Under the pieces are notes generated by a model that searched no databases, had not been told where the DNA came from, and saw only the letters and a list, made by a program, of their open reading frames with translations. The position numbers and the translations under genes were made by a program. A DNA stretch of 13,728 nucleotides from Bacteroidia bacterium (GTDB lineage: Bacteria; Bacteroidota; Bacteroidia; Bacteroidales; VadinHA17). Shown here piece by piece: positions 3,652-13,570 of the stretch. Within the stretch, counting starts at the first letter, position 1. Every line of letters begins with the position of its first letter. The DNA lies in contig JAPLDX010000028.1 in the NCBI GenBank assembly GCA_026391215.1, positions 1-13,728 of the forward strand. The letters are read 5' to 3'.

Positions 3652-5484
3652 TCAGTTAACATCCATCTGGAGGTTGGAGATCTGATCTTCAATCGATATG
3701 CCCCTCAGCAGTTTTGCCGTGTTCGTTATGAACTCATTATGTGAGAGAAGCTTCCTCTGGAAATCGATCCATTCTTTCTTGTCATGCGGTTTTCCGTATT
3801 CCGATTCCTCCCTCAGCAATTTATCAGATAACTTAATATAATCAACGCGTCCCAGGTAATCATATTTTGCATCATGAAGGATATTATCAGAAGCGGATTC
3901 CTGTTTATCATTAAATGAATTGCTGATGATCTTTTTCACCTCATCGATATCAGCCTGTTCAAAAGCATACTTTGGAAGTATCTCCTCAACCAATTGTAAT
4001 GAGGCTTCAAGAGGTTTTTCATAATCAGAAATATAGCCTGTAAAAAGGAATAATGAAGCCAGCTTAAGATGGATAAATTCCTCTTCAGGGAGACTTTCGG
4101 CTGTTGAAAGAAGCTCGGTCTGGTTTGTGACACTTTTGACTAAAGATGCGTTGTGAAAATAAAGATCAGGCGGAGCTTCGTCATCAAACATTTTTATTAC
4201 CAGCTCTTCAATATCCTGAAGCTTTATCATCTGCATCTTCATGATGAATTTCCGGTTTGGCTTTCCATCCTCGCCACTAAGCTCAGGTATAATACCATTG
4301 ACAAAATACATATCGAGCTCGCCTTTGTATTTTACAGGCATTTTCCCCCTGTGCTCACAAACGAAAAAGTCTTTTACAAATTCATAAGTCGTTCCTGAAA
4401 TATTTATTTTTCCTGCTTCTCCGGATGATTCCATCCTGCTTGCAGTATTTACTGTATCACCCCAGATATCATACGAGAGTTTTTTATGCCCGACCACTCC
4501 GGCTACTACTGTACCGGTGTGGATCCCTATCCTGATATCCCAGTATTTCATCCCCTGGAGCTGTGATGCCGCCTTCAGATTGCTCATATAAACCTGCATC
4601 TCAAGAGCTGCGAGAATAACTTCAACAGGATTCGTCCTGTTTTTCTCAGGGATTCCTCCCGCACACATATAGGCATCACCAATGGTTTTTATCTTTTCTA
4701 TGCCAAGACCCTCGACAACAGAATCAAAATGAAAAAAGAACTTATCCAGCTCATCTATAAGAACCTCAGGATTCATCTCCTCGGCAATCTTTGTAAATCC
4801 CTGTATATCTGAAAACAGCACTGTAACAAAATTATATTTTATCTTGGTTGCCTTTCCCTTCTCCATGATCTCGCTGGCAGTATTCTTTGGCAGTACGTTT
4901 GCAAGAAGATTTTCTGTCTTTTCTTTTTCAATTATCAGGTCCTCGGTCCTCTTGTTGATGATCTGCTCAAGCATATACTGGGTCCTTGCAAAGCGCAGGC
5001 TTAAATGTGCATAAAGTGCCCAGAAGATCAGTGCGGCAAATGCCAGATACATAGCTATGGCAAAGCGTGAAAAATACCACAGAGGAAGCACTCTGAACTT
5101 CAGCAATAACAATTCCCCTCCCATGTGCTTCAGATCAGTATACCTCACACGTAATTCGTATTTCCCCGCAGGCAGATTTGTATACTCCTTATAATTTCCT
5201 GATCTCCATTCCCCCCACCCCTCATCATAGCCTTTGAGAAAAAAACAGTAATCCATGGTATCACGGTATTCCATTTCAAACAGCAGGTTGTTATGCCTGT
5301 AGTTAAAAACCATCGTTTCATTCAAAGGGAAATATCCTGTTGCAGTATCAGGGGTTATTAAAGAATCGCTATTTATTATTATGCGGGCAAGGTAAGGAAA
5401 CTCTTCATCGTTAATGACCGTTCCCCCGGAAACCACTCCGGTAAATAATATAAGAAAGAGGCCAAGGTTCCTGAAAAAAACCAT
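3652..5484 (-). CDS. Membrane-anchored class III adenylate cyclase: signal peptide, Y_Y_Y domain, TM, coiled coil, cyclase and degenerate HD domain
   Basis: Preferred start is ATG 5484 (MVFFRNLGLFLILFTGVVSG, signal-like) because a promoter motif lies inside the longer ORF. Y_Y_Y-like segment YCFFLKGYDEGW..EYTNLPAGKYELRVR, then TM after PLWYFS. Cyclase motifs VLFSDIQGFT, EKIKTIGDAYM, IGIHTG and YDIWGDTVNTASRMES; the Lys/Asp pair indicates ATP specificity. The C-terminus aligns with the paralogue's HD domain, but HD is replaced by LF. Confidence 0.88.
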   Translation of the reverse strand: MVFFRNLGLFLILFTGVVSGGTVINDEEFPYLARIIINSDSLITPDTATGYFPLNETMVFNYRHNNLLFEMEYRDTMDYCFFLKGYDEGWGEWRSGNYKEYTNLPAGKYELRVRYTDLKHMGGELLLLKFRVLPLWYFSRFAIAMYLAFAALIFWALYAHLSLRFARTQYMLEQIINKRTEDLIIEKEKTENLLANVLPKNTASEIMEKGKATKIKYNFVTVLFSDIQGFTKIAEEMNPEVLIDELDKFFFHFDSVVEGLGIEKIKTIGDAYMCAGGIPEKNRTNPVEVILAALEMQVYMSNLKAASQLQGMKYWDIRIGIHTGTVVAGVVGHKKLSYDIWGDTVNTASRMESSGEAGKINISGTTYEFVKDFFVCEHRGKMPVKYKGELDMYFVNGIIPELSGEDGKPNRKFIMKMQMIKLQDIEELVIKMFDDEAPPDLYFHNASLVKSVTNQTELLSTAESLPEEEFIHLKLASLFLFTGYISDYEKPLEASLQLVEEILPKYAFEQADIDEVKKIISNSFNDKQESASDNILHDAKYDYLGRVDYIKLSDKLLREESEYGKPHDKKEWIDFQRKLLSHNEFITNTAKLLRGISIEDQISNLQMDVN

Positions 5485-5507
5485 ATCAACCGGTGAAATT
5501 ATTCTTC

Positions 5508-5538
5508 CAAATGTAGCACATAATAAAGACTGGTCAAA
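5508..5538 (-). promoter_or_regulatory. Bacteroidota -33/-7 promoter for the membrane cyclase gene
   Basis: Minus strand TTTG (5538-5535), 19 nt spacer, TACATTTG (5515-5508). Fits TTTG-N19-21-TAnnTTTG and lies 23 bp upstream of ATG 5484. Confidence 0.6.
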
Positions 5539-5557
5539 AGGAAAGGTCAATTTTAAG

Positions 5558-5565
5558 TATTTTTG
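5558..5565 (+). promoter_or_regulatory. Bacteroidota -7 element (TATTTTTG) upstream of rdgB-porZ
   Basis: Matches TAnnTTTG, is followed by CA, and lies 20 bp upstream of ATG 5586. Confidence 0.55.
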
Positions 5566-5566
5566 C

Positions 5567-5585
5567 ACACAAAAGGATTTTGTGT
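5567..5585. repeat. Perfect 8-bp inverted repeat ACACAAAA-GGA-TTTTGTGT
   Basis: Read directly from the sequence. It fills nearly all of the space between the -7 element and the rdgB ATG. Confidence 0.6.
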
Positions 5586-6191
5586 ATGATTGAAATCGTC
5601 TTTGCCACCAATAATGAAAATAAATTAACGGAGATCAGGAATATCCTTGGAACCACCTTTAGCCTGCTGTGCCTGGGCGATCTTAAGATATATGATGACA
5701 TTCCTGAAAACGAACCTACTCTTGAAGGAAACGCAATGCAGAAGGCCCGGTATATTTATAAAATGGTGAATATACCTGTTTTTGCTGATGATACCGGACT
5801 GGAAATTGAATCCCTGAACGGATTGCCCGGAGTTAATTCTGCCCGCTTTGCCGGTGAGGATAAAAATTCCGATTCAAATATTGACAAAGTCCTTAAAATG
5901 ATGGGGACATCTGTAAACAGGGGGGCAAGGTTCAGAACAGTAATTGCCCTTATCCTGGATGGCAGTGAGTTCACCTTCGAAGGAACCGTGAAAGGCCGGA
6001 TAATTACTGAGAGAAGGGGAAGAGAAGGATTCGGGTATGATCCGGTGTTTGTTCCGGACGGCGGTGACCTGACTTTTGCAGAAATGCCGTTAAATGAAAA
6101 GAACATGATCTCTCACCGTGCAAAAGCTTTTGAAAAACTCAGGGAGTTCCTTCTTCATTATAATCATAAGGACAATAAAGGAGCTATATAA
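5586..6191 (+). CDS. rdgB: Non-canonical purine NTP pyrophosphatase (RdgB/HAM1)
   Basis: Contains IVFATNNENKLTE, FADDTGLEI, PGVNSARFAG, GFGYDPVF and KNMISHRAKA. ATG 5586 is preferred over TTG 5580. Confidence 0.95.
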   Translation: MIEIVFATNNENKLTEIRNILGTTFSLLCLGDLKIYDDIPENEPTLEGNAMQKARYIYKMVNIPVFADDTGLEIESLNGLPGVNSARFAGEDKNSDSNIDKVLKMMGTSVNRGARFRTVIALILDGSEFTFEGTVKGRIITERRGREGFGYDPVFVPDGGDLTFAEMPLNEKNMISHRAKAFEKLREFLLHYNHKDNKGAI

Positions 6192-6206
6192 CTGTTTAAT
6201 TCTCTG

Positions 6207-8495
6207 ATGAGGAAACTGCTTATTTTTATCTGCCTGTTTTTTGTCTTTTCCCATTCCCGGGGTCAGACTCCGGTCGGTACATGGACCGATCATCTGGTTT
6301 ATAGTACAGCTAAAAATCTTGCAGTAGGATCCGGAGAGATCTACGCCAACACAGGCTCATCCCTGATCATTTATAATAAGGAATATGCAGAGCTCAGGAA
6401 ATTTTCACGTGTCAATGGCCTCACTGAAACAGCCATAAGCACCATTGCATGGTCAGAAGAAAACAAAGCTCTTTTAATAGCATATTCAAGCGCAAATATC
6501 GATATCCTGAAAGACAATTTAATTTATAATATTCCCGATATCAGCAGAAAATATTTTCCTGGAAAAAAAGAAATAAACAGAATAAGGTTCAGCGGTAAAT
6601 ATGAATATCTGGCCTGCAGCTTCGGAATTGTGGTAATCGATATCATCAAGCAAGAGATATATGATACGTGGAAGCCAGGCAATGGCATTGAGAATCCGGA
6701 GATATGGGACATTGCCTTTGGAAACGGGAAAGTATATGCCGCGACAGGTATCGGAGTATATTCAGCGGATCTTAATGATCCCGGACTTGCATATTTTGGC
6801 AACTGGTCGATTCTCAATTCTCTTCCGGAACCAACAGGGAAATATACAGCGGCAGTGTTTTCCGGTGACATGCTTTACGTCAACCAGACTGGAAAAAACT
6901 TCCCCGGTGATAATATTTATATGATCGGGAATGTAACTTCATTATTTTCATACTCAGCAGGAGTATATAACATTGCTTTTGACAAGTCATCTGATGGATT
7001 TTCTGTCGCATCCGGAAAATCTGTCAGATTATTTCATGATGACGGTACTCTCCGGAAAACCATTTCCTCATACACCTGGGGTGCCCTTAATGCTTCACAG
7101 GCAATTGAAGATCAGGGTGATATCTGGATTGCAGATATCAATTCCGGACTTATTAAAGGAGAAAATATGTCAGATTTTTCTGTTCTGACATTACCCGGAC
7201 CAATTTCAAACAATGCCATCAGTGTTACTTCTTATAACGGGAAAGCCATTATTTGTGGCGGCGGGGTTGACAATGCCTGGAATAACCTTATGAGATCATT
7301 TCAGATTTCAATTTATGAGAACCATACCTGGACAAATATAGAATACACAGATGTTTTTGATGCCATGAGGGCTTTTATTGATCCGGCAGATGAAAGTCAT
7401 TTTTTCATTTCATCCTGGGGGGGAGGATTGTTTGAATACAAGAATAATGACCTGATAAACAGGTATAAAGATGACAACTCCCCTCTGCAGACAATTGTAC
7501 CAGGAGGCCCATACGTAAGGATTTGCGGACTGGCTATGGACAGCAATAGGAATCTTTGGATAGCAGGAAGCAATGTTCCGGGAACACTAAAAGCGCTGAA
7601 GCCTGACAATGACGGTTGGATTGTCAATCCTGCAACATGGGATATAAACGTCGTAGGCGATCTGATAATGACCCGTAACGGGACAAAATGGGCTATCCTC
7701 CCCAGGGGCAACGGCCTTTTTATTTTGGATGATAACGATACTCCCGAATATTTCGACGATGACATGTATAAACAGATGTTTGTTACCGATCCTGATGGAA
7801 AAATGATTGGGTTTGTTTACTGCCTTGCAGAGGATCTTGAAGGAAATATCTGGGTCGGAACCGACCAGGGTCCGCTGGTATATTACAATCCTGACAAAGT
7901 ATTTGAGGAGGAAATCAAGGCATTCCGGATAAAGATCCCCCGTAATGACGGTAGCGGACTTGCCGACCTGGTGCTGTTCACCGAATCAATCGCCTCCATT
8001 GCCATTGATGGCGCCAACAGGAAATGGCTTGGTACAGCAAGTTCAGGCGCATACCTGCTCTCCTCTGACGGAACAAGACGATTAAGAAACTATAATGAAC
8101 AGAATAGCCCTATCCTTTCAAATAACATTGCCAGTGTTGCAGTTGATAATGAAACAGGTGATGTTTGGTTTGTAACCTCTCAGGGTATCATCTCAGTGAG
8201 AGGAGATGCCACAGAAGGCAAGGAAGAATTCTCAGGCATCTACTCCTTCCCTAATCCCGTTAGAGAAGATTATGAAGGAAACGTTATTATAACCGGACTC
8301 ATGAAAGACACCCAGATAAAGATAACAGATATCAGCGGAAATCTTGTCTATCAAACTTTCTCTGACGGGGGACAGGCTTCGTGGGATCTTAAAACCTACA
8401 ACGGTCTCCGTGTTGCAACCGGAGTATACCTGGTATTCTGCGCCAGCAGTGATGGATCTCAGACTGCAGTGACGAAAATATTGGTGATTAACTAG
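6207..8495 (+). CDS. porZ: Type IX secretion system PorZ-like protein (two beta-propellers plus T9SS C-terminal domain)
   Basis: Signal peptide, N-terminal VGTWTDHL, propeller repeats (DLEGNIWVGTDQG, IAIDGANRKWLGT) and CTD FPNPVR..IKITDISGNLVY..SWDL..GVYLV..KILVIN. 762 aa. Confidence 0.85.
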   Translation: MRKLLIFICLFFVFSHSRGQTPVGTWTDHLVYSTAKNLAVGSGEIYANTGSSLIIYNKEYAELRKFSRVNGLTETAISTIAWSEENKALLIAYSSANIDILKDNLIYNIPDISRKYFPGKKEINRIRFSGKYEYLACSFGIVVIDIIKQEIYDTWKPGNGIENPEIWDIAFGNGKVYAATGIGVYSADLNDPGLAYFGNWSILNSLPEPTGKYTAAVFSGDMLYVNQTGKNFPGDNIYMIGNVTSLFSYSAGVYNIAFDKSSDGFSVASGKSVRLFHDDGTLRKTISSYTWGALNASQAIEDQGDIWIADINSGLIKGENMSDFSVLTLPGPISNNAISVTSYNGKAIICGGGVDNAWNNLMRSFQISIYENHTWTNIEYTDVFDAMRAFIDPADESHFFISSWGGGLFEYKNNDLINRYKDDNSPLQTIVPGGPYVRICGLAMDSNRNLWIAGSNVPGTLKALKPDNDGWIVNPATWDINVVGDLIMTRNGTKWAILPRGNGLFILDDNDTPEYFDDDMYKQMFVTDPDGKMIGFVYCLAEDLEGNIWVGTDQGPLVYYNPDKVFEEEIKAFRIKIPRNDGSGLADLVLFTESIASIAIDGANRKWLGTASSGAYLLSSDGTRRLRNYNEQNSPILSNNIASVAVDNETGDVWFVTSQGIISVRGDATEGKEEFSGIYSFPNPVREDYEGNVIITGLMKDTQIKITDISGNLVYQTFSDGGQASWDLKTYNGLRVATGVYLVFCASSDGSQTAVTKILVIN

Positions 8496-8515
8496 TTACT
8501 GTTTATTTGTTGAAT

Positions 8516-8596
8516 CATTTTCGCCAACTGCCTTTAGCACAGTGAATAACGTAATTAAGCACTTGCTTCGTTAATACGTTTATTTATTGCCGGCAA
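8516..8596. repeat. Imperfect hairpin and palindrome cluster between the convergent porZ and AT-rich gene
   Basis: aataacgtaattaa (8545-8558) pairs imperfectly with ttaatacgtttatt (8571-8584). There is a perfect palindrome ttgccggcaa (8587-8596) and minus-strand GTTGGCGAAAATG at 8528-8516. Terminator or recombination-site function is not established. Confidence 0.35.
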
Positions 8597-9712
8597 AAGT
8601 ATTTTATAATCTAATATTATAACCATCAGTAAGAAAGGCATTATAATATTAAAATAACTAATGTCAAAAGATGAGTTGAAAATACTTGAAAAAATACCAT
8701 TTTCGTTAACATTAATTAAGAAAGAAATTAAAATTGGCAATAATAATAAAAGTACATTTAATTTCATTAATGATGTTAAATCATTAACCTTGAATGAGTA
8801 CATAATTGACATTAAAATAGTTATGAAGCTTATTAAAGCGGGTAAATATCTATTTTGAAGTTCAAAAGGGTTATATCGCATAAAATGCTCCAAATTTCCA
8901 ACCCTCTGAAAACATATATAGAAGAAAACAATTGATGTTAATAATGCAATTACTAAAAATTTGGTTTTCTCTTTCAAAGAAAGATTATAGAATTGTTTAA
9001 ACAATAATAAGGCAATAGGAATGATTGCTGTTAATCTTGTTAAGATTAAAGCTGTTGCTCCAAAAGACGTTATTATAGTGTTCAACTCTTTGTTTTTATT
9101 TATTCTATTTTGAATAATTATTAAAAAAAGTAGTACTAAAATAAAATTTGAAATCAAATCACTTTTTACATAAATTTCCCAAATATAGGAAGGGGATAAA
9201 ACTAATAGAAGTAAGCCAAACAGCCTGTCTCTATATTCTTTAAAACTTATAAGAATTATTAAGAAAAACGCGAGGAAGCTAAAAGATTGCAAGTACCCTG
9301 CACTACCCATTAAATAAAATGGAATACCAATAAAAAACAGAGTTGGCAAATTAGAGGTTCTGCCTCCCAGGTGGTCAATAGCAGAATATGGATATTCGCC
9401 TTTTAACAAGGCATTTATACCAGCTTCCATTGCAGACCATCTATCAACATTTAAAGTTTGCCCGTCAACAGAAACATTTAGGTAAATTGTGAACGCAAAA
9501 AATATAAATGAAATAACCCAAAAAACATATTTGTAATAATATTCCCTTATACTAATCTTAAGGTATAAGAATATAATAAGGAACATCAATATAAAATATA
9601 TCAATGTAAAGACGTACTCATTGTTATTATTTAACCTTGAAGTATATTTTAGTACAAATAGACCATTTATAAATAAATAAAGTATATAATTTAATATCAG
9701 TTTTAGTTTCAT
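8555..9712 (-). CDS. AT-rich polytopic membrane protein, possibly a GT-C-fold glycosyltransferase-like protein
   Basis: 385 aa with about 10 hydrophobic segments. The loop NVDRWSAMEAGINALLKGEYPY..HLGGRTSNLP follows the early TMs, a layout reminiscent of GT-C enzymes. The function is inference only. Confidence 0.7.
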   Translation of the reverse strand: MKLKLILNYILYLFINGLFVLKYTSRLNNNNEYVFTLIYFILMFLIIFLYLKISIREYYYKYVFWVISFIFFAFTIYLNVSVDGQTLNVDRWSAMEAGINALLKGEYPYSAIDHLGGRTSNLPTLFFIGIPFYLMGSAGYLQSFSFLAFFLIILISFKEYRDRLFGLLLLVLSPSYIWEIYVKSDLISNFILVLLFLIIIQNRINKNKELNTIITSFGATALILTRLTAIIPIALLLFKQFYNLSLKEKTKFLVIALLTSIVFFYICFQRVGNLEHFMRYNPFELQNRYLPALISFITILMSIMYSFKVNDLTSLMKLNVLLLLLPILISFLINVNENGIFSSIFNSSFDISYFNIIMPFLLMVIILDYKILLPAINKRINEASA

Positions 9713-9777
9713 TGCCGACTTGTAAGGAATACTCTTTTTTCTTCAGATTTTTAAAAGCGACAAGCTCCTGACAACTT

Positions 9778-11181
9778 CTAATCCGTTATCAAACTCTGTA
9801 TCCTCTCAATCTGCAGCTGCTTATTCACCTCTCTCAGGCTTCTTGCAGTTTTGGTAAAATACTGGTGCCCTGAAATGAATTTAACCTGGATCTTGTTCCA
9901 GTCATTAAGTGATCCCATCTTATTCTGGGCTTTCAGCTCCTCAAATAGAGTATTTGAAACCGGGATGAAATCACTTCTTCCAAGATAGTCCAGGTCAGAA
10001 TCACATATTATATCCTCAAGAAGGTTGGTAGGTTTTGGCGGCAGCTTGGTCGACATGATTATGGCGCAGATCTTTTCTATCTGCTCAGGAGAATAGTTAT
10101 ACTTTGGAAGCATCTCCCTGGCAATTATTGTCCCTTCGTATTCATGACCGTCATAGGTTACGGTATGTCCTACATCATGAAATAACCCTGCTGTTTTAAG
10201 CACGAGGATCTCCTCGTCCGAGCATCCCTCTCCCCAGCCAATAAGCTCCACTTCGGTCACAACATCAACCGTGTGCTTTACATTATGATAAAAAAGGTAA
10301 TCAGGCAGCTCTCTTTCCAGTTTGTCAAGGATTATCTCCTGTATATCAGTAAACTGTATCAATCCGAATTTAATCCTGAATGCCTCATTGGGGGTAACTC
10401 CTTTACCATCAACTGAAAATTCAGGTTTGAGTCCTGTAACCGTGTACATCTGCAGATCGCCCTTATATTTTACAGGAAGCTTGCCAAAGTATTCACAATC
10501 AAAGAACTCTTTTACAAGCTCGTAGGTCATCACCGAAATAATGACCCCGCCTTTTTCCGATACTGCCTCAACACGGCTGGCAGTATTTACTGTATCACCT
10601 TTTATATCATAGTTGACTTTCTTTTTACCGGATATTGTTGCAGTTACCGGTCCTGTATGAATGCCGATCTTGAGATCCCATATCCTGTTGTCTGCTCCTC
10701 TTTTATTCTTCTCATAATTCTCAAGATAATTCTTCATCTCGAGTGCAGCCATTACAACATCAATCGGGTTGGTGATATTCTTTACAGGTATCCCGCCTGC
10801 ACACATGAATGTATCACCGATGGTCTTTATCTTTTCAATCTTGAACCTGACAACTATCGCATCAAACTCGTAAAGGATCTCATCCAGCTCATCCATGACG
10901 GCTGTTGAATCCATTCCTTCAACAAGCTTTGAAAAACCATGTATGTCTGAGAAGAGAACGGTCGCCATATTGAATTTCAGCGACTTCTCCTTCTTTTCCT
11001 CAGCCATTTCCTTCAGACCCTCGGGAGAGGCTTTTTCATATAAAGCTTTGACCTTTTCATTATCCCTTGCAAGCTTCTCATTCTGCTTTACAAGCTTTTT
11101 GATCTGATCCTCAAGCTCCTGGTTCTGCTTGGCAAGCTTTGCGATCCTTTTTACAAGCTCATCAATATTGGTTGCAACCAT
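9778..11181 (-). CDS. Soluble class III adenylate cyclase fused to an intact HD phosphohydrolase domain, with an N-terminal coiled coil
   Basis: Heptad-rich N-terminus (LAKQNQELEDQIKKLVKQNEKLARDNEKV). Cyclase motifs VLFSDIHGFS, EKIKTIGDTFM, IGIHTG and YDIKGDTVNTASRVE. HD motifs YHNVKHTVDV, LFHDVGH, GHE and ICDSDLDYLGR. No TM or signal peptide. Confidence 0.9.
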   Translation of the reverse strand: MVATNIDELVKRIAKLAKQNQELEDQIKKLVKQNEKLARDNEKVKALYEKASPEGLKEMAEEKKEKSLKFNMATVLFSDIHGFSKLVEGMDSTAVMDELDEILYEFDAIVVRFKIEKIKTIGDTFMCAGGIPVKNITNPIDVVMAALEMKNYLENYEKNKRGADNRIWDLKIGIHTGPVTATISGKKKVNYDIKGDTVNTASRVEAVSEKGGVIISVMTYELVKEFFDCEYFGKLPVKYKGDLQMYTVTGLKPEFSVDGKGVTPNEAFRIKFGLIQFTDIQEIILDKLERELPDYLFYHNVKHTVDVVTEVELIGWGEGCSDEEILVLKTAGLFHDVGHTVTYDGHEYEGTIIAREMLPKYNYSPEQIEKICAIIMSTKLPPKPTNLLEDIICDSDLDYLGRSDFIPVSNTLFEELKAQNKMGSLNDWNKIQVKFISGHQYFTKTARSLREVNKQLQIERIQSLITD

Positions 11182-11234
11182 GTCAAATATGTTGGAGAGT
11201 AAATATAATAATTCCAGTTACACTTATCAACAAA

Positions 11235-11267
11235 CAAAATTATCAAATTGTTGTATTTTTGAACAAA
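11235..11267. promoter_or_regulatory. Overlapping divergent Bacteroidota promoter motifs (cyclase-HD gene and recO)
   Basis: Minus strand: TTTG (11267-11264), N21, TAATTTTG (11242-11235). Plus strand: TATTTTTG (11254-11261), 17 bp before the recO ATG. The AT-rich context makes chance matches possible. Confidence 0.45.
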
Positions 11268-11278
11268 ACCGGGCATTG

Positions 11279-12004
11279 ATGATTGAAAAAACAAGGGGAA
11301 TAGTTCTTCACCAGCTGAAATATACCGATACGGGAATCGTTGCTCAACTTTATACTCTGAAATACGGAAGGCAGTCTTTCCTTATCAAGGGGATGAGAAA
11401 TAAAAAATCGGGGAAACATAGTGTTTTCTTTCAGCCCATGTCCATCCTCGACCTGGTAATGTACTATAAGGAGTCCCGGGAGATGCAGGTCCTGAAAGAA
11501 TTCTCTGTTTCATATTCACCTGCCGATATCTTTACAAATATCAAAAAAACCAGTGTGGCGCTTTTCCTTGGTGAGGTTCTGACATCCGTCCTGAGGGAAG
11601 AATCTCCTAATGAGGAGATGTTCGGATTTATAGAGGATTCAGTAATTTATTTTGACAGATGCAAAGAGAATTTTGCCAACTTCCATATTGCATTCCTGGC
11701 AGGGCTTAGCAGCTATCTGGGGTTTGAACCGGGTCCCCGGACAGCAAATGATGACAAATACTTCGATATGATTAACGGAGTTTTTGTACCGGTCCCTCCT
11801 CTCCATGGCAGCTATGCAAGCCGGGAGATTTCAGATATCCTGGCAGATTTTTTTTCAGCATCATATGAAACCAGCAAGAATATAGTACTATCCGGAGCGC
11901 TCAGAAATGAAGTTCTTGAAGTGCTGGTAAGCTATTATTCACTTCATCTTCCGGGGCTGAAAAAGGTCAGGTCGCTTGAAGTGCTTAAAGAGGTCTTTGG
12001 ATAG
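11279..12004 (+). CDS. recO: DNA repair protein RecO
   Basis: MIEKTRGIVLHQLKYTD..LYTLKYGRQSFLIKG..FQPMSILDLV OB-fold N-terminus, LGFEP, and C-terminal YYSLHLPGLKKVRSLEVLKEVF. True start is ATG 11279 (241 aa). Confidence 0.93.
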   Translation: MIEKTRGIVLHQLKYTDTGIVAQLYTLKYGRQSFLIKGMRNKKSGKHSVFFQPMSILDLVMYYKESREMQVLKEFSVSYSPADIFTNIKKTSVALFLGEVLTSVLREESPNEEMFGFIEDSVIYFDRCKENFANFHIAFLAGLSSYLGFEPGPRTANDDKYFDMINGVFVPVPPLHGSYASREISDILADFFSASYETSKNIVLSGALRNEVLEVLVSYYSLHLPGLKKVRSLEVLKEVFG

Positions 12005-12046: not shown

Positions 12047-13570
12047 ATGCCTGCAATCACAAACATTATTAACCGCTTTTATTCCAGGCGTATAAACCAG
12101 ATTGAGCATTTTAAGAAATTTCCTGTTGAGATCCAGAATGAGACACTTGAATGGTTAATTAAGAAAGCATCCTTAACTGAATGGGGCAAAAAATACGGTT
12201 ATTCATCAATCTCTTCTTATAAGGAATACCAGATCCGAGTGCCTGTCCAGACCTATGAAGAGCTTATTCCTTTTGTTGACAGGCTGGGAAATGGAGAATC
12301 AGATCTTTTATGGCCGGGCCGGATAAAAAGGTTTGCAAAATCATCAGGGACGACTTCATCAAAAAGCAAGTTTATTCCGATAAGCAATGATGCACTTCAA
12401 AATTGTCATTACAGGGCAGCAAAAGATGTTCTTGCCATTTATGTCTTCAATAATCCCTCTACCCGGATATTCTCTGGCAAGGCGCTTACACTTGGCGGTA
12501 GCCACAGGATCGACCAGTTCAGCAGTAAAGCTCTGTCCGGAGATCTTTCAGCCTTACTTATTGAGAACGCTCCTTCCTGGGTTGAGCTGGTAAGGATACC
12601 AAAACCTGAAATCGCCCTTATTGAGGATTTTGAAAAAAAATTAGACCTTATTACCAAAGCTACTGTTAAGAAAAATGTAACAAACTTCTCGGGTGTTCCG
12701 TCATGGTATCTTACGCTGATAAAATATATTCTTGCATATACCGGGAAATCAAATCTTCTGGAGATCTGGCCAAATCTCGAGGTTTTCTTTCACGGAGGAA
12801 TATGCTTTACACCATATCGTGAGCTGTATAAAAAGCTGATCCCTGGTGATCAGATGCATTACATGGAAACATATAATGCATCTGAAGGTTTTTTTGGCAT
12901 CCAGGATGATCCATCAGATCCCGATATGCTGCTGATGCTCGATTATGGAATTTTCTACGAGTTTATTCCCGCAAATAAAACAGGTACTGATTTTCCTCTA
13001 TCATATACAATTGGTGAAGTAGAGAAAGGAGTAAACTATGCTATTGTTATATCAACAAACGGCGGCCTCTGGCGATATTTGATAGGTGATACGATTGTAT
13101 TCACCAGCCTGGATCCGTACAGGTTCCATATTTCAGGCAGAACAAAACATTTCATAAATGCCTTCGGGGAGGAGGTGATTATGGATAATGCGGAGAAAGC
13201 GCTTGAAGCTGCGTGCCTGGCAACCAATGCTATAATATCGGAATATACTGCCGGGCCTGTTTTTATGGATGCCTCTTCAAGGGGTTCACATGAATGGATA
13301 ATTGAATTTGAAAAAAGTCCTGATGACCTTAACCATTTTACCGACATCCTTGACAGAACACTTCAGTCTGTTAACTCCGATTATGAAGCTAAGCGTTTTA
13401 AAGATATTAATCTCGTGAAGCCGGTAATTAGGACCGTTCCAAAGGGGACATTCCATAACTGGCTGAAATCAATAAATAAACTGGGAGGTCAAAACAAAGT
13501 GCCAAGGCTTTCCAACAACAGGGAATATATTGAGGATATTTATAAAATAGCAGGAATAAGAAGTGCATAA
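12047..13570 (+). CDS. GH3-family (acyl-acid amido synthetase-like) protein
   Basis: Contains FAKSSGTTSSKSKFIP (adenylating P-loop-like), YNASEGFFG, GLWRYLIGD, GRTKHFINAFGEE and GGQNKVPRL. Confidence 0.92.
   Translation: MPAITNIINRFYSRRINQIEHFKKFPVEIQNETLEWLIKKASLTEWGKKYGYSSISSYKEYQIRVPVQTYEELIPFVDRLGNGESDLLWPGRIKRFAKSSGTTSSKSKFIPISNDALQNCHYRAAKDVLAIYVFNNPSTRIFSGKALTLGGSHRIDQFSSKALSGDLSALLIENAPSWVELVRIPKPEIALIEDFEKKLDLITKATVKKNVTNFSGVPSWYLTLIKYILAYTGKSNLLEIWPNLEVFFHGGICFTPYRELYKKLIPGDQMHYMETYNASEGFFGIQDDPSDPDMLLMLDYGIFYEFIPANKTGTDFPLSYTIGEVEKGVNYAIVISTNGGLWRYLIGDTIVFTSLDPYRFHISGRTKHFINAFGEEVIMDNAEKALEAACLATNAIISEYTAGPVFMDASSRGSHEWIIEFEKSPDDLNHFTDILDRTLQSVNSDYEAKRFKDINLVKPVIRTVPKGTFHNWLKSINKLGGQNKVPRLSNNREYIEDIYKIAGIRSA

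Follow-up and report, generated by a model that had tools for sequence, protein, structure and literature searches.

The stretch of DNA considered here (hereafter the window) comprises 13,728 nucleotides, positions 1 to 13,728 of contig JAPLDX010000028.1 in assembly GCA_026391215.1, from a member of the Bacteroidales assigned to VadinHA17. It carries a pair of minus-strand genes, referred to as A and B, which are separated by 4294 bases and which each code for a class III cyclase homology domain followed by an HD or HD-like domain. A preliminary description of the locus, made from the letters alone, had presented the two as same-strand paralogues about 4.3 kb apart that align from a linker to the C-terminus. 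This was borne out by a BLASTP comparison, in which A and B are 40% identical over 449 aa (E 3e-107) in an alignment running from the helix that precedes the cyclase domain to the C-terminus, and the sequence strings quoted in that description are present in the two translations. The features of the two genes are as follows.

3652..5484, minus strand: gene A, a membrane-anchored class III cyclase with a dead HD-like C-terminal domain (open reading frame (ORF), Pfam, identity to B)
5413..5484, minus strand: A residues 1-24, N-terminal hydrophobic segment, either a signal peptide or a first membrane helix (Kyte-Doolittle, 19-residue window, peak 1.85)
5134..5250, minus strand: A residues 79-117, Y_Y_Y domain (Pfam PF07495, 29.5 bits, cut-off 26.6)
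5008..5076, minus strand: A residues ~137-159, membrane helix ahead of the cytoplasmic part (hydropathy peak 2.09)
4294..4839, minus strand: A cyclase homology domain with the six canonical residues DKDDNR (PF00211, E 4.3e-55 in a genome-wide search)
3664..4236, minus strand: A pseudo-HD domain, homologous to the B HD domain and lacking three of four metal ligands (profile A1, E 4.1e-41)
9778..11181, minus strand: gene B, a soluble protein of 467 aa with a coiled coil, a cyclase homology domain and an intact HD domain (ORF, Pfam, AlphaFold2 model)
11029..11178, minus strand: B residues 2-51, long N-terminal helix, a probable coiled coil (DSSP on the AlphaFold2 model)
10435..10977, minus strand: B cyclase homology domain, with the six canonical residues here but relaxed across its clade (PF00211, E 7.6e-42 in the genome-wide search)
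9784..10365, minus strand: B HD domain, compact, both YpgQ-like and phosphodiesterase-like, with ligands H303, H335, D336, D394 and H299 (profile match 5.3e-100)

Counted from an ATG, the product of gene A is 610 aa long, and its open frame runs on to a GTG at 5568. Between its two hydrophobic segments lies a stretch of ~110 aa, predicted to be outside, which contains the Y_Y_Y match, and the cytoplasmic part has a Guanylate_cyc match at residues 216-397 (E 3.7e-54; 183.5 bits against a Pfam cut-off of 21.9). The catalytic set of class III cyclases consists of two metal-binding Asp residues, a substrate Lys and Asp, and a transition-state Asn and Arg, and all six are present in A. The C-terminal domain of ~190 aa gave no Pfam HD match. 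At the positions of B residues H299, H303, H335, D336 and D394, which in B read H, H, H, D and D, it has H, L, L, F and D, and the HD metal motif is lost at three of its four ligand positions. Since the domain nevertheless remains homologous by profile A1, which was built from 75 intact HD domains with the dead-HD A-types and the loci L057 and L085 left out, we regard it as a pseudo-HD domain. The earlier portrait of A, with its extracytoplasmic part, membrane segment, canonical cyclase and HD domain devoid of metal ligands, therefore holds.

Gene B codes for a protein in which a hydropathy scan found no hydrophobic segment, and its AlphaFold2 model has a predicted local distance difference test score (pLDDT) of 91.3. 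The Guanylate_cyc match covers residues 69-249 (E 3.1e-41; 141.4 bits against the same cut-off of 21.9), and Foldseek aligned this domain with solved cyclase domains, including 3uvj, 4ni2 and 1cjk, at E 3e-18. A fold search with the whole model gave cyclase domains only, and the HD part was therefore folded (pLDDT 95.4) and searched alone. This part has a Pfam HD match (PF01966) at residues 302-395 (32 bits against a cut-off of 22) and the complete metal motif, H303, H335, D336 and D394, in keeping with the initial view of B as a soluble protein with an intact HD domain. The same account had given B substitutions in its cyclase domain, as the degenerate part of this copy. This part of it did not hold up: the six canonical residues are untouched, B reading DKDDNR exactly as A does, and the differences adjoin the active site, where members of the B clade (described below) share a Lys in place of the Trp after the specificity Asp and a changed AGVVG strand. 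Because the Lys/Asp specificity pair is present in both proteins, the substrate of A and B is likely to be ATP and the product cyclic AMP (cAMP). NCBIfam holds no informative family for either protein.

The source genome is 98.9% complete, and genome-wide profile searches identified A and B as its only PF00211 genes and, with profile A1, as its only members of this HD family. It also codes for three cyclic nucleotide-binding proteins of 230-243 aa, which are candidate cAMP receptors.

We then compared the constraint acting on the four domains. Across 18 genomes of the genus, mean pairwise identity is 0.893 for the A cyclase, 0.575 for the A pseudo-HD, 0.767 for the B cyclase and 0.847 for the B HD domain; in the same order, the ratio of nonsynonymous to synonymous substitution rates (dN/dS), taken from the 4 pairs with a synonymous rate (dS) below 1.5, is 0.020, 0.100, 0.056 and 0.030. 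A thus combines a tight cyclase with a dead HD domain and B a tight HD domain with a relaxed cyclase, and by these measures all four appear to be under purifying selection, in a reciprocal pattern in which none is drifting freely. The complementarity of intact and degenerate parts that had been claimed for the pair accordingly stands in conservation and across relatives, whereas in the window itself only the HD domain of A is catalytically degenerate.

A scan of species genomes for relatives of A found 173, of which 80 were kept as orthologues. Every one of these has a canonical cyclase, no HD dyad and an open frame; in 12, the open frame is no longer than 535 aa, too short to hold the Y_Y_Y domain. 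Among the invariant columns of the pseudo-HD domain are a Trp and a Gln close to the C-terminus, which are found in 78 and 74 of the 80 orthologues, respectively. With dN/dS values of 0.10 and 0.056 and open frames throughout the A orthologues, decay as a pseudogene was rejected for both spare domains and, since both remain under purifying selection, they probably have some non-catalytic role. All of the 80 orthologues come from uncultured Bacteroidales or 'Rikenellaceae' genomes bar one labelled Chloroflexota; this last (L207, JBLNAO010000341.1), 65% identical and on an 8.4-kb contig, is probably a binning error.

A and B belong to a large and uncharacterised cyclase-HD family that is widespread in Bacteroidales. 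At E 1e-75 or better, it was matched in 148 of the 401 sampled genomes of the order, 63 of them with two matches and 85 with one (a hand count of the table), and B as a query matched 36 of 41 relatives; public records label the proteins only 'adenylate cyclase' or 'HD domain-containing protein'. The common form is a protein of ~1250 aa with a propeller/Y_Y_Y sensor and both catalytic domains intact. When residues were tabulated for 89 sampled relatives in four groups, the long forms (~1200-1290 aa, with Reg_prop, Y_Y_Y, cyclase and HD domains) and related forms had a canonical cyclase in 26 of 28 cases and an intact HD domain in 27, and a mid-size group of 581-634 aa had an intact HD domain in 7 of 7. 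The soluble B-types (~455-505 aa) likewise have an intact HD domain in all 42 members and a canonical cyclase in only 9. The A clade, which among these relatives was confined to the window's family, has a canonical cyclase in 12 of 12 members, while H303, H335 and D336 are lost in 11; the twelfth, from the sister genus, reads HHYDD and is intermediate.

Losses in the cyclase domain of the B clade are not evenly spread over the catalytic set. Half of the 42 members (21) have another residue in place of the first metal Asp, all 42 retain the second Asp and the Arg, and 36 retain the Asn; among the 21 without the first Asp, 8 also lack the Lys, and one member of the genus reads EKDDHR. This pattern bears on the proposal with which the preliminary description had ended, namely that A and B form a membrane-tethered heterodimer, joined through their coiled coils and cyclase domains, in which a signal from the envelope tips the system between synthesis and hydrolysis. 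Dimerisation is obligatory for class III cyclase domains, those of A and B are 54% identical, and the loss of the first Asp with retention of the second Asp and the Arg, the former being the commonest loss in the clade, would fit a subunit that gives one half-site to a mixed dimer. A complementary loss of half-sites was not found, however, since neither cyclase domain in the window is without one, and some B-types, such as the EKDDHR protein and the 8 that also lack Lys, have lost residues of both; moreover, the pre-cyclase helices of A and B are only 25% identical. The known systems that come closest are soluble guanylate cyclase alpha/beta and the C1/C2 pair of mammalian adenylate cyclase, in which class III domains likewise follow helices and which Foldseek matched to the B cyclase domain, but there the subunits have complementary half-sites, whereas A and B both have the full set and their genes are separable across genomes.

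The retention of part of the catalytic set in B-types and of the Trp and Gln in A is also relevant to a second possibility, that both spare domains act as pseudo-enzyme sensors. In GGDEF-EAL composite proteins of c-di-GMP signalling, the maker and breaker of the messenger are fused, and one degenerate domain is often kept as a regulatory or binding module; this is the nearest known logic to the reciprocal pattern of A and B, although messenger and folds are different and a regulatory role for the degenerate domains of A and B is only putative. In a cAMP counterpart of such proteins, the dead HD domain of A would bind cAMP through the Trp and Gln, as candidate base-binding residues, and feed back on the A cyclase, and the relaxed cyclase domain of B, with its invariant second Asp and Arg, would bind ATP or cAMP and gate the HD hydrolase; a mixed A:B dimer would be one possible way to achieve this. 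We consider this arrangement unlikely; were it correct, Bacteroidales would have in the cyclase-HD family their main make/break machinery for cAMP, one that has so far gone undescribed.

To place A and B in the history of the family, a maximum-likelihood tree of 87 rows was built, with L057 (at a contig end) and L085 (with masked bases) dropped and with a midpoint root. The B-types form a single clade of 42 rows (Shimodaira-Hasegawa approximate likelihood ratio test (SH-aLRT) 100) and the A-types a single clade of 12 (SH-aLRT 96), which is nested among the long forms and in which a branch of 0.47 leads to the genus. Because the clades of A and B are distinct and well supported, and each has relatives from many families, a recent tandem duplication was rejected; the tree points instead to an old A/B duplication, with B belonging to an old soluble clade. 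In other families, the long forms adjoin Ham1, PorZ or a class IV aminotransferase, as A does, and this match of neighbours suggests that A is the positional descendant of the long sensor form. By this evidence, A appears to be a shortened descendant of that form, without the propellers and with the HD metal site gone, and its Y_Y_Y domain a remnant of the propeller/Y_Y_Y sensor; the long form itself is probably ancestral. A separate observation concerns L029 (G040:C313), where a soluble, B-like protein of 486 aa sits between Ham1 and a class IV aminotransferase, the position of the long form or A, which may mean that soluble forms have relocated or have more than one origin.

Linkage of the two types is a matter of taxonomic depth. 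Within the window's genus, A and B lie on one contig in 21 of the 22 matching genomes, and the B query, which also picks up A, had no match in two further members of the genus, whose genomes are 79% and 97% complete. Outside the window's family, the two types sit on different contigs or megabases apart (in two single-contig genomes, at 1.14 versus 3.52 Mb and at 4.02 versus 2.30 Mb), and either occurs alone. B-type genomes without a long form carry canonical receiver-domain cyclases instead. Furthermore, all five of the genomes checked have a single PF00211 gene, which codes for a cyclase-HD fusion; both domains are intact by eye in the three sequences inspected. The existence of genomes with a single cyclase-HD gene implies that the family works without a paralogous partner. 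We also noted three genomes of 2.1-2.5 Mb (G083, G326 and G216) in which the only class III cyclase is a minimal form of ~500 aa (L135, L136 and L137) with one membrane helix, a canonical cyclase and an intact HD domain.

The genes around A and B in the window are as follows.

5580-6191, plus strand: Ham1, between A and B (Pfam/NCBIfam)
6207-8495, plus strand: type IX secretion protein PorZ, between A and B (NCBIfam, 614 bits)
8555-9712, minus strand: polytopic membrane protein of 385 aa, between PorZ and B
11129-12004, plus strand: RecO, open frame counted from the first TTG, overlapping the start of B by 53 bases
12047-13570, plus strand: complete GH3-family protein with N-terminal, middle and C-terminal domains, adjoining RecO (E 6.6e-54)

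A class IV aminotransferase and an FtsX-like protein (Pfam/NCBIfam) are also found in the window. The order RecO-B-PorZ-Ham1-A-aminotransferase-FtsX is kept in all 21 related loci examined, including those of the sister genus (in 5 of these syntenic loci PorZ was hidden by an overlap filter, a gap of ~2.4 kb being present in its place). With PorZ and Ham1 between them on the opposite strand, A and B are not co-transcribed. We also considered an anti-phage cyclase system, which was dropped given that the neighbours (PorZ, Ham1, RecO, class IV aminotransferase and FtsX-like) are housekeeping genes in a conserved order, no search of a defence library having been made.

The heterodimer gains something from this context, as A and B share one conserved neighbourhood in all 21 loci and two genomes of the genus yielded neither gene. 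On the other side stand the age of the paralogues, the position of A as that of the long sensor form, the separation of the types across the order (where 85 of the 148 matching genomes have one match), the genomes that manage with a single cyclase-HD gene, the receiver-domain cyclases of B-type genomes that lack a long form, and the two genes transcribed in the other direction between A and B. Independent occurrence, which had been named at the outset as the observation that would speak against the heterodimer, is thus seen at the level of the order and is not seen in the family with the dead HD domain. Taken together, the context argues against an obligate A:B pair, and we judge such a complex to be distinctly improbable. 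The pair is probably not the new kind of heterodimeric machine first proposed, although a make/break role for cAMP is plausible.

What, then, does the HD domain do? A search of solved structures with the B HD sequence alone gave nothing significant (best E 1.1), whereas profile A1 matched 2pq7 (1.3e-06), YedJ (1.7e-04), PDE9A (4.8e-04, at positions 27-68 only) and YpgQ (0.0093), the class I phosphodiesterases as a whole matching at positions 16-69 only. In an alignment, the H-x-x-x-H and HD motifs are common to the B HD domain and the YpgQ/YedJ-like hydrolases. When the HD model was compared with solved structures, Foldseek placed 2pq7 and YpgQ first and PDE5 and PDE4 next. VIA gave Z scores of 17.4 for 2pq7, 16.9 for YpgQ and 13.4 for YedJ, with the next unrelated tier at 10.6; sixteen class I phosphodiesterase entries, which included PDE1, 2, 3, 4, 5, 7, 8 and 9, RhoPDE and trypanosomatid enzymes, scored 14.6-16.5, with 183-194 of 198 residues aligned at a root-mean-square deviation of 2.7-3.3. 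The fold of the B HD domain is therefore about equally close to YpgQ-like hydrolases and to class I phosphodiesterases. The model has the catalytic-core fold shared by class I enzymes, which alone does not show function. By profile, the domain remains outside that family: the PDEase_I family (PF00233) gave 18.0 bits with full-length B and 19.7 with the HD part, below the cut-off of 24.8 and covering profile positions 1-49 of 238, and such sub-threshold matches were found in 64 of the 75 family members. We conclude from the model and profiles that this is, in all appearance, a compact HD hydrolase with a class I phosphodiesterase core.

A different reading of these data is that the HD domain is not a cAMP phosphodiesterase at all, being instead a YpgQ-like nucleotide pyrophosphohydrolase or an enzyme acting on some other phosphoester, for which 2',3'-cyclic nucleotides and a different second messenger are examples. 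In that case, the reaction linked to the cyclase by the fusion would be another one, and make/break would be the wrong description of the pair. It is the YpgQ/YedJ-like proteins that give the best profile matches, head the Foldseek list and share the metal motifs. In addition, this HD type has matches in 143 of 401 genomes sampled across the phylum and commonly occurs as stand-alone proteins of ~200 and ~400 aa; a cyclase-domain ORF lies within 4 kb of 5 of 20 stand-alone ~400-aa genes in other Bacteroidota, and none was found there for the other 15. The protein atlas offers only generic clusters named 'HD domain-containing protein'. Weighing the other way is the fact that, in 148 of the 401 genomes sampled from the order, the domain is fused to a cyclase whose residues specify adenine. 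The class I Z scores, too, lie only 1-3 units below the top and far above the 10.6 tier. In alignment A1, Q163 is invariant and F166 nearly so, forming a Gln-x-x-Phe pair near the C-terminus that may be a counterpart of the purine-binding Gln/Phe clamp of class I phosphodiesterases. Finally, two papers report YpgQ-like plant proteins as cyclic nucleotide phosphodiesterases (PMC8431786, PMC6692503), with hydrolysis of cAMP or cGMP in vitro in the former. The fusion, the cyclases near 5 of 20 stand-alone relatives and these plant reports together suggest cAMP as the substrate, and we hold a different substrate to be a minority prospect, albeit a real one. In three loci (L064, G026:C68, ~186.4-187.7 kb; L067, G011:C106; and L068, G004:C4), a separate cyclase gene directly adjoins a separate HD gene that belongs to this family and codes for 228 to ~400 aa, a second, unfused arrangement of the two domains.

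The explanation that we prefer, to which we give roughly even chances, is that A and B are old paralogues that have subfunctionalised, A as a cyclase and B probably as a phosphodiesterase, each acting as its own dimer. Under this model, the common and probably ancestral form would be a ~1250-aa envelope sensor, with Reg_prop propellers, a Y_Y_Y domain, a membrane helix and both catalytic domains intact, and in the window's family two copies would have divided the work. A would derive from the sensor form by loss of the propellers and the HD metal site and, with its cyclase invariant, would make cAMP at the membrane. B, soluble and with an invariant HD site, would most likely hydrolyse cAMP to 5'-AMP, and its cyclase domain, under weaker constraint, would probably serve mainly in dimerisation or regulation. 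A and B are each most likely to be homodimers, so that the link between them would be a shared messenger and not contact.

Several observations sit uneasily with this division of labour. B has all six cyclase residues in the window and may still make cAMP, and so be bifunctional here. Its HD domain falls under the Pfam phosphodiesterase threshold, and the proteins closest to it in sequence are YpgQ/YedJ-like hydrolases with a different substrate or none assigned, YpgQ itself being described as a nucleotide pyrophosphohydrolase in a title cited in PMC8431786. The dN/dS values come from 4 pairs, three of which are drawn from three related genomes and are not independent. The ancestral long form is inferred on a tree that is rooted at its midpoint. 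Lastly, the family with the dead HD domain keeps A and B always together, which fits a closer coupling than a shared metabolite.

We compared the cyclase-HD family with other known systems. The nearest known maker/breaker fusion is CAPE (combined adenylyl cyclase with phosphodiesterase), of Marchantia and other streptophytes with motile sperm, in which, according to PMC5159850, PMC8115329 and PMC11032487, a class III adenylyl cyclase and an HD-superfamily cAMP phosphodiesterase domain are joined in one polypeptide. CAPE is eukaryotic and has an N-terminal phosphodiesterase domain of full class I type, whereas here the cyclase is followed by a compact YpgQ-like HD domain of ~190 aa; the cyclase-HD family also has specialised paralogues with one dead domain. 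The YpgQ/YedJ-like small HD hydrolases (2pq7, 5dqv and 3gw7, and the plant proteins AtCN-PDE1 and BdPDE1) provide the solved folds and sequences closest to the B HD domain, but they are stand-alone proteins and only 17-21% identical to B. The sensor module of the long forms, of which A keeps the Y_Y_Y domain, is that of the periplasmic Reg_prop/Y_Y_Y sensors of Bacteroides hybrid two-component systems; the output here is cyclase-HD and not a chain of kinase, receiver and DNA-binding domains, and A is without propellers. In a full-text literature search, which covered the main text of papers outside subscription journals, no account of a family of bacterial cyclase-HD fusions came to light.

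Little has been mapped of cAMP turnover in Bacteroidota. Should the HD domain prove to be a cAMP phosphodiesterase, bacteria would have a new type of this enzyme, akin to the class I core of eukaryotes, and A and B would be a natural case of duplication and complementary loss in which both dead halves are under selection. The pair offers testable handles on how catalytic domains turn regulatory.

Datasets that matched the stretch listed no RNA dataset from which expression could be read; the DNA datasets with high shares of the stretch are freshwater sediment metagenomes, among which the source sample may be included. The gene for the 385-aa membrane protein has a G+C content of 0.31-0.35 against ~0.41 in its surroundings, and matches no Pfam family and, in NCBIfam, only a putative glycosyltransferase family, weakly and below threshold. 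None of the 21 syntenic loci in relatives has it, which marks it as a strain-specific insertion between B and PorZ. At the other end of B, the Pfam RecO_N match begins at residue 51 of the RecO frame, so that the true start of RecO is probably a Met near 11279; RecO and B would then diverge from a common intergenic region of ~97 bases. The order of the GH3-family gene is also kept in the sister genus.

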